Origin: an uncultured Clostridia bacterium | Lineage (GTDB): Bacteria > Bacillota > Clostridia > TANB77 > CAG-508 | Reading direction: 5' to 3' | Assembly (NCBI GenBank): GCA_948896235.1 | Contig: CAQUUC010000001.1 | Coordinates: 140,371-204,370, forward strand | DNA length: 64,000 nt | In this document: one piece after another, positions 1,399 through 40,964 of the stretch | How positions within the stretch are numbered: the stretch's first letter is position 1 | Layout of the letters: each line of letters opens with the position of its first letter | The notes under the pieces: generated by a model | What the model saw: only the letters and a program-made list of their open reading frames with translations | Told to the model about the DNA's origin: nothing | Databases searched by the model: none | Made by a program: the position numbers and the translations under genes

Positions 1399-1443
1399 GG
1401 GAAAATTTTGGGAATTGAAAGCTAATTTCTTCAAATATATAAT
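1399..1443 (+). promoter_or_regulatory. conserved promoter module copy A: GGGAA-N6-GGGAA direct repeat, -35 TTGAAA (1415-1420), 17-nt spacer, -10 TATAAT (1438-1443)
   Basis: Sequence match to sigma-A consensus with 17-nt spacing; one of six near-identical copies in the window. Confidence 0.6.
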
Positions 1444-1456
1444 GATAACATACAAA

Positions 1457-1502
1457 AAGAGTAAAGACTAGGTTTAGCAACCTGGCATTACTCTTTTTTA
1501 TT
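1457..1502 (+). terminator. leader hairpin plus U-tract downstream of promoter A (AAAGAGTAA..TTACTCTTTTTT), inner stem AGGTT/AACCT
   Basis: Inverted repeat followed by T6; lies between the predicted TSS and the RBS of the ORF at 1529. Confidence 0.5.
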
Positions 1503-3356
1503 ATATTGAAGAGAGGAGCTAGGACAAAATGAAATCAAAAAAGATGGAAGCAATTCCTATTAATGTTGATTTGCTAAATTTAATTACACCACAAGGAATC
1601 GAAATAAAAAACAATAAAGTTCAGTTAGGAGATACAACACATAAACTACAATATATTAGTGGGTATCCTTCAACTGTAAATGTTCGGATGGCTAATGAAT
1701 TTGAAAGATATGAAAAGTAGCACAGTAAGTTTATTGGTTAGTCCTATAGAAGATATTCAAAGTTATGTAGAAGGAATTAGTAAAGGTCTTGCTACAGATA
1801 AAAATACCTATAATACAACTAATAACGAAGCTCTAAAGACACAAGCAGAATTCAAAATTGCTTCAGCAGAAAAAATTATTAGAGATATAACAGTAAATAA
1901 TATTCCATATGTGAATTTGTCATTCTTAACCAGAACATCAGGAAAAACAGATAATGCTTTTTTAGAAAATTGTAGAAAAGTTAAAAATGAAATTGCAGGA
2001 ATGGGATTAAAAGCAAGAGTACCAGCATTTATTCAAGAAAAAGCATTAAGACAAGCTGGACCATATGATACTTTTGACCAAGAGATACTAGATATGTCAA
2101 ATAAAAATATGTCATTAGAAGCATTATTTCTAGGGTTACCATTCAGTCGGAAGTGGAATTGTAGACAAAGAAGGCTACTATTTAGGTACGGATGAAGATG
2201 GAAAAATAATTATATTATCACCATTTTGTAAAACACCAGCAAGACCAAATTCAAACTGTGTTATAACAGGAGCTTCTGGAAGTGGAAAATCATACTTGGC
2301 TAAGAAAATACTATTTAATGAATGGTTGAATGGAACAAAAATTTATGCAATAGATCCAGAAGGTGAAATGCGAGATATGTGCAGAAGAGTAAAAGGAAAG
2401 TGGGTAGATTGTTCAGGTGGAACAGGTGAGAATGTTGGAAGATTAAATCCATTGCAAGTCAATCCATTGCCAACACAAACAGAAAGTGATGAAGAAGATG
2501 AATATATATCAACAAAATCAGCTTTATCATTACATATGAATTTTTTATCTACATTTTTCAAATTATACTTCCCAGATATAACAACATTACAAATGAGTAT
2601 CTTAATGGAATCACTAGAAGAATTATATAAAAATTTTAATATTGACTGGGAAACAGATGTAACTAAAATGAAAAGTACAGAATTTCCAATTATGGAAAAC
2701 CTATATTATTTATTAGAAGATAAAGCTAATAAACCTTCAGAACATAAAAAACATTATGAAACATTAAGGTCAGTTATAAGAGGGCTTGCGATAGGAGAAA
2801 GCAAAGAATTATTTAATGGCCATTCTACAATAAAGATTGACAATTCTTTTGTATGTTTTGATGTAAGTGCGTTACAAAATTCAAACGAAAATATTAAAAG
2901 ATGTCAATATTTAAACATTTTGAGATTTTGTGAAAATTTAGCATTTAGAGATAGAACAGAAAAAGTATATGTAGCATGTGATGAGGCTTATTTGCTTATA
3001 GATAAGAAAATAAAAGAATCTATTGAATTCTTACGAAATTTTTGTAAAAGATGTCGTAAATATCAGGCTCGGACTAATGATAATTTCTCAAAATTTAGTG
3101 GATTTTTTATCTCCAGAAGTAAAACAGTATCGGACAAGCAATACTAGACAATAGCACTTATAAATTTTTTTTCGGAACAGATGGTCAAGATTTGGTAGAA
3201 ATTGTAAGAATTTACAATCTAAATCAAGATGAAAAAGCAATAATTAGTCAAAAGGACCAACGGAAGAGGATTGTTATTTATAGGATCTGGACATATGTTA
3301 ATAAATGTTAAAGGATTAAAATATGAAGAACCATTCTTAGTTGGAGGTGGTATCTA

Positions 3357-4046
3357 ATGTCAACATCTATTGAAGATATTGGAGCAACTGCTTTTAATTT
3401 TCTTTCATTAAAAGTAAAAGCAATTATATTAGGAATAATTATAGGATTGTTCTTTTTAATAATAATACCAGTTTTATTGATAGCAGGATTATTTACAACT
3501 GATAATAATGAAGATACAGAAGAAACAACCACTTCATCAGTAGTATCAGGAGAAGTGATTTCAGATGAAGATTTAACCAAATATGCAGAAGCAAAATTTA
3601 TTATTCCATTTGCAAAATGGGATTCTGCTTCAGGAAAAATAACATCAAAACATGGTTATAGAATTCATCCAGTAACTGGAGTAAAAAAGAAACATACAGG
3701 TATGGATTTAGTTTCATTATCAAGTAATAAAATAGTTGCAGCAGAAGATGGTGTTGTTTCTTTAAGAACTTATAATAATTTAGGTTCTAGTTTTGGAAAT
3801 GGAGTTGAGATATTACATACATTGCCAGATGGTACAAAAATATATACTTTTTATGCTCATATGAAAGATGGAACTGTTAGTTGTAAAGTAGGAGATACTA
3901 TAAAAAAAGGAGAAGTAATTGGCATAATGGGTAGTACAGGACTATCAACAGGAGATCACTTACACTTTGAAGTAAGAACGAAGTCTGGATATGGGAATGA
4001 TATTAATCCAGCTCCATTTTTGTTTGGAAATATATTAGAAGCATAA
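3357..4046 (+). CDS. M23/LytM-family peptidoglycan endopeptidase, N-terminal TM anchor (conjugation-associated cell-wall hydrolase)
   Basis: HTGMDL, YAHM and GSTGLSTGDHLHFEVR zinc-site motifs typical of peptidase M23; hydrophobic N-terminus IILGIIIGLFFLIIIPVLLIAGLF. Confidence 0.8.
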   Translation: MSTSIEDIGATAFNFLSLKVKAIILGIIIGLFFLIIIPVLLIAGLFTTDNNEDTEETTTSSVVSGEVISDEDLTKYAEAKFIIPFAKWDSASGKITSKHGYRIHPVTGVKKKHTGMDLVSLSSNKIVAAEDGVVSLRTYNNLGSSFGNGVEILHTLPDGTKIYTFYAHMKDGTVSCKVGDTIKKGEVIGIMGSTGLSTGDHLHFEVRTKSGYGNDINPAPFLFGNILEA

Positions 4047-39707: not shown

Positions 39708-40873
39708 GAATAGAAAACAAATATAATGATGTTTATTATACTACATGTGATGATGTTGGAGAAAATACAGGGGGATATTTTATACAATTTTATTCAGATC
39801 CAGATTTTATAGATGAAATTGATAATATGGTTTTGCATAAAGAAACAGAAGAAGTAAATAATCCTGAAAAATATATACATGAATACATAGTAAATGAAAA
39901 GTTAGACTTATTAGTTGCTAGAAAAGCACTTGAAAATGGGATAAAAGATAATCCTAAAATACTAGAAGTTATTGACATGTTTATGAATAATGGAGACAAT
40001 AAAGCACTTGAACAATTATATGCAATAACTAAAGATAAATTATTAGAGATTCTTATTACATGGAAAGTGGAATATGGAGATATTATAGATGATCCAAAAA
40101 CTAATATCAGTTATATGTATAATGATATTATAGGATATGTATGGGACAAATATGGATTAAATGAAATGACACAAAGAATAAAAGGAACTACAATGATAAA
40201 AAAAGAATTAGAAGAAAAGATTGTTAGTACATTTGAAAATCAATTAAACACAAATAGAAATAAATTTGAATTAAACAAAGATATAGAGTTAGCTGATTAT
40301 TCAATTACTGAATTAAATTATCTTGTATCTAAAAATATTATTAAAGTATCTAATATATCTAATTTAAAATTTAGGTTGGAACAAAAATATATTGATCGCT
40401 TTTTAGAAAAAAAGTGGGAGGATCTTACAGATATACCCTTTATAGAAAAAAAGGGTGAAGAAATACTAGATGGTACATATTGGGATTTTACAAAAGGACT
40501 AACAACTAAAGAAGATATTTGGCACTATTTTGACCATAACTACTCAAAAGGTGTACATTTTTTACTATATGAATTAGATAATAGCCAAATAGAGAGTACA
40601 CAAGAATTAGTTGATATTATAAAAAATATGGAAAAAATAGATATACTTAAAATAAAAACTAGTGCTGAATCTTTAGATTTAGCAAATACATTTTTTACAT
40701 TTGAACTAAAAAGAGCAATTTTAGATAAACTAGAAGTAATCGAAATGAATCATCTTCAAGAAAAAATGTCATACGAAGAGATTAAAACAGATATTATAGA
40801 TACCATTAGTGAAATATCCGAATTATATGGAGTTAAAATTGAAGATACTGAAGAAGATGAAGTTAGGGAATAA
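39704..40873 (+). CDS. hypothetical acidic protein (tail ..EEDEVRE)
   Basis: 389-aa ORF; GTG/ATGA overlap with the upstream gene. Confidence 0.45.
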   Translation: MRIENKYNDVYYTTCDDVGENTGGYFIQFYSDPDFIDEIDNMVLHKETEEVNNPEKYIHEYIVNEKLDLLVARKALENGIKDNPKILEVIDMFMNNGDNKALEQLYAITKDKLLEILITWKVEYGDIIDDPKTNISYMYNDIIGYVWDKYGLNEMTQRIKGTTMIKKELEEKIVSTFENQLNTNRNKFELNKDIELADYSITELNYLVSKNIIKVSNISNLKFRLEQKYIDRFLEKKWEDLTDIPFIEKKGEEILDGTYWDFTKGLTTKEDIWHYFDHNYSKGVHFLLYELDNSQIESTQELVDIIKNMEKIDILKIKTSAESLDLANTFFTFELKRAILDKLEVIEMNHLQEKMSYEEIKTDIIDTISEISELYGVKIEDTEEDEVRE

Positions 40874-40910
40874 AAAGGGAATTGAAAGCTCAAATACAAG
40901 TATTTATAAT
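40866..40910 (+). promoter_or_regulatory. promoter module copy E: AGGGAATAAAAAGGGAATTGAAA, 17-nt spacer, -10 TATAAT (40905-40910)
   Basis: As copy A; the first GGGAA lies inside the stop region of the upstream gene. Confidence 0.55.
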
Positions 40911-40919
40911 AATATTATG

Positions 40920-40964
40920 AAGTTATAGGTTTGTACACGCATAAACTTATAACTTTTAATTTTA
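40920..40964 (+). terminator. leader hairpin AAGTTATAGGTTT..AAACTTATAACTTTTAATTTT
   Basis: 13-bp stem (1 mismatch) plus T-rich tail before the RBS of the 40984 gene. Confidence 0.4.

Follow-up and report, generated by a model that had tools for sequence, protein, structure and literature searches.

Global regulons of conjugative plasmids are represented by KorA/KorB of IncP plasmids, the omega heptads of pSM19035, and AcaCD of IncC plasmids with SGI1. Global operators before all backbone operons are known in Gram-negative and Inc18-type plasmids, without promoter-proximal terminators. The Q proteins work with a binding element at the promoter, a -10-like pause element, and a promoter-proximal terminator, and the site of Q21 is a direct repeat of two subsites (10.1101/651190). 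AlpA of Pseudomonas aeruginosa acts from a DNA site at the promoter on the terminator just downstream (PMC7969949). Gram-positive conjugative elements are governed by termination and antitermination, as with conAn of pLS20, the T1 insulator of Tn916, and canT (PMC8191782, PMC8955417, PMC11658703). UP elements have two 11-bp A-rich subsites from -38 to -59, the proximal one with the consensus AAAAAARNR at -46 to -38 (PMC4132738, PMC2801614). AbrB sites have two TGGNA pentamers around an AT-rich spacer of 4-5 bp, and direct orientation is allowed (PMC3738160). The subject of this work is a promoter-terminator cassette from a 64,000-nt stretch (the window) of contig CAQUUC010000001.1, positions 140,371 to 204,370, of an uncultured Clostridia bacterium, where it heads the operons of an integrated conjugative element (ICE). 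The cassette is a new variant of known control kinds, outside every family tested, and no mention of its motif was found in the literature searched.

The cassette is a conserved design specific to mobile elements, in which phased repeats, a predicted sigma-A promoter, a second hexamer, an A-run, and a putative terminator follow in fixed order. It resembles lambdoid Q/PR'-tR' and AlpA in having a strong constitutive promoter, a promoter DNA element, a -10-like element, a near terminator, and a long operon. Unlike these systems, it has its repeats upstream of -35, is present in at least eight copies per element instead of one, belongs to a Gram-positive conjugative element and not to a phage, comes with no Q or AlpA homologue found, and is known here from sequence alone. 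As in the KorA/KorB, omega, and AcaCD regulons, one short operator stands before most backbone operons, and as with AcaCD and SGI1, mobilisable islands copy the site before their excision genes. It differs from the plasmid regulons in that the operator is made of 11-bp-phased pentamers abutting a consensus -35, with a terminator after every promoter.

The direct repeat GGGAA-N6-GGGAA occurs exactly six times in the window, always on the plus strand, at 1399, 6590, 10041, 17661, 25349, and 40866. These are the six modules pointed out by an earlier sequence-only reading of the window, and all were located. A search for GGGAAN6GGGAATTGAAA with up to two mismatches gave five matches against 0.12 expected, and five were reached in 0 of 100 shuffles. 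The geometry given in that reading was recovered as well: the second GGGAA is fused to TTG and the spacer is exactly 17 nt in 6/6 modules, with TATAAT as the -10 in four and TATGAT in two. The -35 is TTGAAA in four modules, TTGATT at 17677, and a degenerate TTGTTT at 6606. Hexamers similar to TTGACA and TATAAT and 16-18 bp apart, as in sigma-A promoters, are present in 6/6 modules, and two modules score 11/12 against the sigma-70 consensus, the top score in their regions. The N6 between the repeats is always A/T-rich, and the 17-nt spacer is not conserved from cassette to cassette. The modules lie directly behind a stop codon, as had been described, five of them starting 1-18 nt past it, and the first repeat of the copy at 40866 contains it.

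Exactly 2 nt 3' of the -10 is a second TAnnAT hexamer followed by an A-run (consensus TATAAT-Gr-TAnyAT-s-AAAAA). It was found in 21 of 26 cassettes, a set of both repeat types (see below) taken from loci fetched by protein identity and collected without reference to the hexamer. The predicted start of transcription is the conserved A inside this hexamer, seven nt past the -10. Relative to it, the repeats are at -52 to -36 and the second hexamer spans -4 to +2. The features in the window are listed below (folding free energy, dG, in kcal/mol).

1399..1443, plus strand: module 1, GGGAA-AATTTT-GGGAA, -35 TTGAAA at 1415-1420, 17 nt, -10 TATAAT at 1438-1443; heads the VirB4-like/M23 peptidase operon.
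1446..1451, plus strand: second hexamer of module 1, TAACAT, predicted start A 1450.
1454..1499, plus strand: terminator hairpin and T-run of module 1, predicted to begin at transcript nt 5; dG -19.2, z -6.0.
6590..6634, plus strand: module 2 with degenerate -35, GGGAA-AAAAAA-GGGAA, TTGTTT, 17 nt, TATAAT; lies before a variable accessory block (XRE, SSB, nitroreductase, RHH).
6635..6710, plus strand: leader of module 2, near-identical in the relative L080.
6711..6745, plus strand: terminator hairpin and T-run of module 2, ~70 nt past the predicted start.
10041..10085, plus strand: module 3, GGGAA-AAATTT-GGGAA, TTGAAA, 17 nt, TATGAT; stands before a gene for a secreted/surface protein (GTG 10155) and an operon encoding acidic-tailed proteins, with sortase last; L080 and L020 have orthologues.
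10088-10093, plus strand: second hexamer of module 3, TAATGC.
10092..10129, plus strand: terminator hairpin of module 3, from the predicted transcript start; dG -19.6, z -6.6.
17661..17705, plus strand: module 4, GGGAA-AAATTT-GGGAA, TTGATT, 17 nt, TATAAT; heads thioester/SpaA-type adhesin genes.
17708..17713, plus strand: second hexamer of module 4, TAACAT, predicted start A 17712.
17716..17759, plus strand: terminator hairpin and T-run of module 4; dG -19.4, z -4.6.
25349..25393, plus strand: module 5, GGGAA-AAATTT-GGGAA, TTGAAA, 17 nt, TATGAT; lies in front of a frameshifted radical-SAM gene and the opening part of the acidic-protein array.
25396..25401, plus strand: second hexamer of module 5, TAATAT, predicted start A 25400.
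25403..25445, plus strand: terminator hairpin (18 pairs) and T7 run of module 5; dG -19.4, z -6.7.
40866..40910, plus strand: module 6, GGGAA-TAAAAA-GGGAA, TTGAAA, 17 nt, TATAAT; lies in front of the second part of the acidic-protein array.
40913..40918, plus strand: second hexamer of module 6, TATTAT, predicted start A 40917.
40919..40957, plus strand: terminator hairpin and T-run of module 6; dG -15.1, z -6.5.

All six leaders in the window have a stem-loop with a T-run (dG -15 to -23 kcal/mol, z -4.4 to -6.7), and 0/200 shuffles fold equally well. As scored against the shuffles, the folds span 1454-1498, 6711-6743, 10092-10129, 17716-17759, 25403-25442, and 40919-40956. The eight leaders of the whole ICE all fold far better than shuffles, with z of -4.4 to -7.2. 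The coordinates of the hairpins agree with the sequence-only reading at all six sites, but its distance of 10-40 nt downstream fails at site 2, where the hairpin is ~70 nt away. A hairpin with a U-run of at least four is present in 25 of 26 cassettes of both lineages, and the U-run begins at +31 to +56 in 24. The stem starts 0-4 nt past the predicted start in five of the six window leaders and 2-4 nt past it in seven of the eight leaders of the ICE; for recombinase classes A and B and for the sister lineage the figure is 15-30 nt. The hairpins resemble canonical intrinsic terminators, and the leader attenuation proposed earlier is plausible. The order of promoter before terminator, tight on the upstream stop codon, is kept in every copy of both lineages, and a ribosome-binding site (RBS) and a long operon without any other promoter follow within 25-110 nt of every cassette. 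No terminators other than the cassette hairpins were found between the ICE operons. As the cassette is tight against the preceding gene, its hairpin is also the sole terminator of the upstream operon; the hairpin of module 1, for example, is the only terminator for the operon before it. In pLS20 and Tn916 too, intrinsic terminators insulate and gate the transfer genes; these elements, unlike the ICE, which has its own promoter for each operon, have one main promoter, an early RNA antiterminator, and scattered terminators. RNA-based antitermination of the conAn2, canT, or put-like kind does not fit the cassette, with only 2-30 nt before the terminator stem and no Rfam family matching in the leaders.

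On the same contig, 2.1 and 8.3 kb before the window begins, are two more cassettes, both with a hairpin; the count of six therefore holds for the window but not for the ICE. The TrbL operon begins with one of them, which overlaps a stop codon; the other lies behind an XRE gene, at the head of the operon of ParB, RHH, relaxase, and coupling protein. The ICE has at least eight cassettes, at the heads of the ParB/relaxase, TrbL, VirB4, accessory, surface-protein, adhesin, and two cargo operons, and the same short site is found before most backbone operons, as in a plasmid-type regulon.

The motif search in related genomes that had been suggested earlier was made as an exact scan of one genome per species with the pattern GGGAA N6 GGGAATTGA N19 TATNAT. 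At least 106 loci were found, ~94 of them in metagenome-assembled genomes (MAGs) of uncultured Clostridia and Clostridium from animal and human guts. Among the matches listed, about a dozen in unrelated phyla look like chance, 52 loci have the module followed by the hairpin, a small open reading frame (ORF), and a large serine recombinase, and all contexts inspected were recombinase, integrase, or conjugation genes. In another class, the module precedes an operon of helix-turn-helix (HTH) protein, excisionase, and tyrosine integrase; the remaining matches are homologues of this ICE. No housekeeping, rRNA, or ribosomal-protein gene was found behind the module among the ~94 Clostridia matches listed. 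The proposal that the modules form a regulon of the element is supported by these contexts, with at least 90 copies in related mobile elements, and by the eight copies in the ICE. A host housekeeping promoter type was ruled out, since the downstream genes are those of recombinase, integrase, or conjugation functions and Rfam gave no rRNA and only one tRNA near the matches. A known plasmid or phage element was ruled out as well: there are no matches in the plasmid database PLSDB, 0 in 2.9 million viral contigs, and no megablast match for the first 20 kb. Relaxed repeat scans with two mismatches gave mostly noise, an nhmmer profile added only few degenerate copies of the module, and a relaxase-alignment scan of metagenomes returned distant relaxases alone, none with a cassette.

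Loci of the recombinase classes become homologous to each other ~10 nt upstream of the first GGGAA, which would place the cassette at the very end of these elements. Several loci have an identical promoter and unrelated sequence downstream, with the break directly after the start site or the hairpin, and the cassette therefore behaves as a recombination unit. One recombinase-class cassette, in L022 (minus strand, ~6848-6873), has three tandem GGGAATAAAAA units, not two, so the 11-bp unit can be iterated. Class C recombinase loci (L006, L010, L013, and others) have a leader with two complementarities: of its 5' end AGCAUGAAA to the small ORF's start-codon region UUUCAUGCU, and of the terminator's 3' arm to the Shine-Dalgarno region. 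These complementarities suggest alternative pairings; the covariation gives weak support, with compensatory changes in only two pairs.

The ICEs whose TraC-like protein is 62-65% identical to that of this ICE have an equal gene order and no GGGAA cassette. Their operons are headed by tTTCAAAAnnnn-TTCAAAAnnnA-TTCA-TTGACr-N17-TAnnAT-tt-TAnnAT-aAAAA with a hairpin and a U-run, where three 11-bp-phased TTCA(AAA) direct repeats abut the -35 (TTGACA). There are 3-4 such cassettes per 20 kb, in loci L120-L122 and L127 (in L121 at 4863, 16071, 17979, and 20267). The same architecture with a different repeat favours a site for a sequence-specific protein. A set of loci chosen solely for identity to ParB, whose gene comes directly behind the first cassette, gave the following repeats.

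ParB 78% identical to this ICE: GGGAA/GGGAA repeats.
ParB 63% and 51% identical to this ICE: GGGAA/CGGAA repeats.
ParB 45% and 38-39% identical to this ICE: TTCAAAA repeats.

The repeat type, as judged from these loci, is one that tracks the ICE lineage. ParB and the RHH protein are the most diverged of the shared proteins between the repeat types, with 38-39% identity against 50-68% for secretion proteins. In class D loci (L007, L015, L030, L052, L062, and L069), a TTCAAAA-type promoter stands ~45 nt upstream of a GGGAA-type one before the HTH-excisionase-tyrosine integrase operon. Since both types head one operon there, both work in one cell, and the small integrative element of class D may answer to signals from both ICE lineages. 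As a tentative likeness, TTCAAAA shares five of seven letters with the reversed Spo0A box TTCGACA.

The claim of selection instead of recent duplication is upheld by related elements. Those that can be aligned are 65-88% identical to the window in DNA overall, and in them the upstream genes have diverged or cannot be aligned at their 3' ends while module, start region, and hairpin are nearly identical. The hairpin arms of orthologues differ by G-U/A-U exchanges and compensatory substitutions: the hairpin of module 3 has structure-preserving changes in L020 and L080, and that of module 5 has G-U/A-U exchanges against L090. At the position of module 6, L031 has a hairpin of unrelated sequence plus a T-run. 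Among paralogous cassettes the N6, N17, and hairpins vary and the repeats and hexamers are constant, which also points to selection. The orthologue of module 2 in L080 retains both GGGAA repeats. At the places that correspond to the G triplets, 221 other strong promoter-like sites from ~800 kb of this DNA are not enriched in G. The repeats are thus not a general property of promoters in these genomes. Two observations near module 2 are added here. Its leader (window 6635-6712; L080 4685-4770) is almost 100% identical in spite of different downstream genes, and its minus strand has a possible ORF of 31 codons with a good ribosome-binding site. A palindrome GGGGAAAATTTCC at 7256-7268, ~25 nt 5' of a separate TTGAAT-17-TATAAT promoter of the SSB gene, resembles one repeat unit, but is outside the cassette register.

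With a slight lean in its favour, the cassette as a whole is read from these features as a factor-controlled promoter-attenuator heading the ICE operons; within this reading, control of initiation and control of read-through seem about equally likely. RNA polymerase would bind the cassette promoters strongly and start at the A seven nt past the -10. By default, most transcripts and the read-through from upstream would stop at the hairpin and give RNAs of ~40-65 nt, so that each operon would be insulated and kept low. A lineage-specific DNA-binding protein, encoded by either the ICE or the host, would dock on the phased repeats (GGGAA here, TTCAAAA in the sister lineage) and set the output of all cassettes together. 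It might block or assist initiation, as in a global plasmid-type regulon, or it might let polymerase that has started at the cassette read through the terminator (promoter-loaded antitermination). Small integrative elements with the cassette before their recombinase genes would then respond to the same signal. A dedicated protein is favoured by the lineage-specific letters (GGG vs TTC), by the absence of the repeats from other promoters, and by their restriction to mobile elements. It can also be argued that the order of promoter and then terminator is functional, because all 26 cassettes of the two lineages show it and the recombinase classes do too, because a terminator that merely ends the upstream operon would normally precede the next promoter, and because a role as a 5' stabiliser suits the stem starts of this ICE (+3 to +5) but not those of other lineages (+12 to +25).

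Several points weigh against a dedicated factor or against one of its two forms. The repeats sit exactly at UP-element positions, with N6 plus GGG fitting the proximal AAAAAARNR at -46 to -38, so that a dedicated factor may not be needed, and an activator seems unnecessary at near-consensus promoters. Under a pure repressor, satellites without the repressor would be constitutively on, and a repressor does not explain the terminators and the second hexamer. A Q-like mechanism expects repeats between -35 and -10; here they are upstream of -35. No candidate protein co-occurring with the cassette was found, and the 8-kb recombinase loci share with the ICE only an M23 peptidase and an XRE protein, in one locus. 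The scan pattern fixes GGGAA, TTGA, and TATNAT, so the invariance of these letters in the genome-scan loci is partly imposed by the search and is not evidence. The unbiased evidence comes from the eight copies of the ICE and from the loci fetched by protein identity.

The read-through form of the factor-controlled cassette, taken by itself, is a tentative analogue of Q and AlpA. A repeat-bound protein would load onto polymerase held at the second hexamer, the terminator ~45 nt downstream would then be ignored, and otherwise only short RNAs would be made. Such a switch might, though this is rather doubtful, turn on all transfer, adhesin, and cargo operons together, with satellites having copied the cassette to excise with a helper ICE. 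A promoter-loaded antiterminator would suit every feature of the cassette, with Q and AlpA as its formal precedents. All four ingredients (strong promoter, direct repeat, -10-like element, and promoter-proximal terminator) occur in a constant order, the element bound by Q21 is likewise a direct repeat of two subsites, and AlpA acts on terminators just upstream of the first gene. Satellite recombinase operons that are off by default and carry no regulator would be accounted for, and a lineage-specific upstream part joined to a common downstream part mirrors the different Q families. The positions agree less well. Known Q and AlpA sites are between -35 and -10 or beside the pause element and not at -52 to -36, and the second hexamer overlaps the start (-4 to +2), earlier than known sigma-dependent pause elements. 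With processive antitermination, moreover, eight internal promoters would be superfluous. Pfam scanning of ICE proteins, many of which belong to no family, revealed nothing of the Q, AlpA, or NusG-like kind.

It is unlikely that no dedicated regulator exists and that the repeats form a double UP element, with two A-tract plus GGG units contacted by RNA polymerase through two alpha-subunit C-terminal domains (alpha-CTDs). The cassette would then be a portable, very strong promoter spreading among mobile elements by recombination, and the terminator would trim its output and end the upstream operon. The cassette does resemble UP elements of the rrnB P1 type in its two A-rich 11-bp units and in the fit to AAAAAARNR: N6 plus GGG is at -46 to -38 and, in the recombinase classes, AAAAAA plus GGG is at -57 to -49, which matches the two 11-bp subsites, and two tandem proximal subsites boost a Bacillus promoter. 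The register to the -35 is fixed in all copies, the N6 is A/T-rich throughout, a shared regulator gene was not found, and recombination breakpoints right after the start site or hairpin fit a portable unit. UP elements differ from the cassette, whose G triplets (TTC in the sister lineage) are invariant and restricted to mobile elements. These non-A letters are strictly kept within a lineage while the spacers drift, and the lineages keep different letters. The lack of G enrichment at the 221 other sites and of housekeeping genes (0 of the ~94 matches listed) also speaks against this reading, and the second hexamer and the systematic order of promoter before terminator are left unexplained. Strong constitutive promoters on all transfer and recombinase operons are hard to square with a quiescent integrated element.

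The hairpins might instead serve mainly as 5' stabilisers against 5'-end-dependent decay, with termination of the own transcript as a side effect, but this is quite improbable. The 5' stem-loop stabilisers of Bacillus and E. coli need the hairpin near the 5' end, and seven of eight ICE hairpins do start 2-4 nt past the predicted start, the spacing needed. The distance is 15-30 nt in the sister lineage and in classes A and B of the recombinase loci; all hairpins bear U-runs, needless for a stabiliser, and the natural variant L019 has cleanly lost exactly the terminator hairpin. A function of the short RNAs (~40-65 nt) themselves as small regulatory RNAs is very improbable, since the abundant product expected of a strong promoter with an immediate terminator would have loop and stem sequences wholly different between cassettes, even at orthologous positions, has no Rfam match, and is followed by an RBS within 25-110 nt of every cassette and then a long operon without another promoter.

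As for the factor that the promoter-attenuator reading calls for, the regulators proposed by the sequence-only reading, XRE (6856) or RHH (8956), are not supported: their 3.3-kb block is absent from the close relative L080, which keeps the flanking cassettes. The XRE beside the first cassette is not a good candidate either. Its homologues, 63-68% identical, occur in contexts similar to Tn916 and Tn5397 without any cassette, and it travels with its own palindromic promoter region. In that region, a 32-bp indel (L107 440-470 against L108-L111) covers a palindromic AATAATAACAATATAAATTATTATT; the indel differs between otherwise identical ICE copies, and AATAATAACAATATAAATTATTATT also accompanies the XRE homologues in unrelated elements. 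Palindromic AATAATAACAATATAAATTATTATT is probably the XRE operator. Better, though unproven, candidates are the RHH protein RHH148, ParB, a receiver-only protein with partners of 161 and 153 amino acids, and a protein of 65 amino acids, since elements of the GGGAA type conserve them, whereas in those of the TTCAAAA type they are diverged or unknown. The divergence of ParB and RHH148 between the repeat types is a correlation only. Searches of Pfam and of PDB sequences gave no support for the 65-amino-acid upstream protein as alpha-CTD-like. As no more than a lead, cassette repeats resemble AbrB sites in having xGGxA pentamers around an AT-rich spacer, and the ICE encodes an AbrB/MazE-like protein upstream; they differ in the spacer of 6 bp and in G as the first base. 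The ICE gene for the AbrB-like protein is missing from the relatives L125 and L126, which retain the cassette, and a host AbrB-like protein as the binder is a formal possibility, by analogy. Alternative sigma factors (ECF, SigH, and sporulation sigmas) were rejected by eye, against their consensus sequences, since the spacing from GGGAA to downstream elements misfits; there is no conserved -10 at 16-18 nt past either GGGAA, though the ICE encodes a pair of ECF sigma and anti-sigma factors.

The 9.8 kb upstream of the first ICE cassette encode ECF sigma and anti-sigma factors, Spo0A_C-like, AbrB/MazE-like, two HTH, and receiver-only proteins. This regulatory cluster was found to have no cassette of its own, which is expected if the cassettes are its targets.

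The regulation of conjugative elements in Clostridia is essentially uncharted, above all in uncultured gut lineages, where this element is very common. One cis-module on every ICE operon and on recombinase genes elsewhere gives a direct handle on the timing of movement of this part of the gut mobilome, and its sharing between the ICE and other mobile elements points to shared control of gene transfer. The motif can be used to locate elements, to delimit operons, and as bait for the binding protein, and the natural repeat types offer a swap test of specificity. The strict promoter-before-terminator design is unusual. If the cassette is a factor-dependent read-through switch, Gram-positive bacteria would have in it a new system of DNA-loaded antitermination; should it be no more than a strong promoter carrying its own attenuator, it would still be a compact, portable expression part for low-GC anaerobes.

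The window has ~25% G+C and nearly all genes on the plus strand. The ICE occupies it from 1 to ~46.6 kb and encodes TraC-like, VirB4-like, M23 peptidase, SSB, sortase, thioester/SpaA adhesin, and PcfM-like proteins, as well as two long runs of small acidic proteins. The VirB4-like fragment is only ~35% identical to VirB4/DUF87 of Gram-positive conjugative plasmids. One ICE protein was recorded in 393 blocks of the contig collection. The contig was recovered again in a public assembly, where it extends upstream of the window. No integrase or recombinase was found in the window or in 18 kb upstream. The right end of the ICE (46538-46833) adjoins a yebC-like gene and has a tandem direct repeat GCAATTTTGGT GCAATTTTGGT at ~46733-46756, which may be part of the attachment site. 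In L127 (2887-3748) and L112 (13447-15313), related elements are inserted beside a truncated cotJC (Mn-catalase family), after cotJA-cotJB, and the L112 junction carries a large serine recombinase; the cotJC insertions resemble sporulation-gene intervening elements.

About 40 consecutive small ICE proteins have a strongly acidic C-terminal tail (EEEEL, EEEEM, DEEETI), encoded at 11236-16159, 23701-46538, and also 5860-6576. At least four D/E in the last 10 residues are present in 7/7 ORFs of the first block and ~31/36 of the second; at least three are present in 0/23 host ORFs. For a few of these proteins there are matches to 'leading-region' families of conjugation (DpnD/PcfM, DUF7659). The tail common to them all could be a recognition/export signal for the conjugation machinery or a DNA-mimic feature.

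The first genes after sites 1 and 5 (VirB4-like, 1529-3147, and radical-SAM, 25540-26382) are split by frameshifts, and so are spoIIIAA (47764-48715), priA (60208-62503), and the coupling-protein gene (L107 4257-5913). Identical splits were called in the independent-looking public assembly of the contig, and similar ones occur in sister ICEs of other assemblies. They are either common homopolymer assembly errors in AT-rich MAGs or gene decay; an alternative genetic code was ruled out, as the fragments sit in different frames. Homopolymer lengths may therefore contain errors, but the module spacings are nonetheless identical in every copy and across independent assemblies. The window beyond 46.8 kb is clostridial chromosome with yebC-like, spoIIIA, priA, def, and fmt genes (by eye from translations). 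The host region at 55010-60118 encodes a 1393-amino-acid surface protein of F5/8-type-C/dockerin-like type and then a cohesin-like protein with a long PGDNE/PGDNK repeat (domains assigned by eye).

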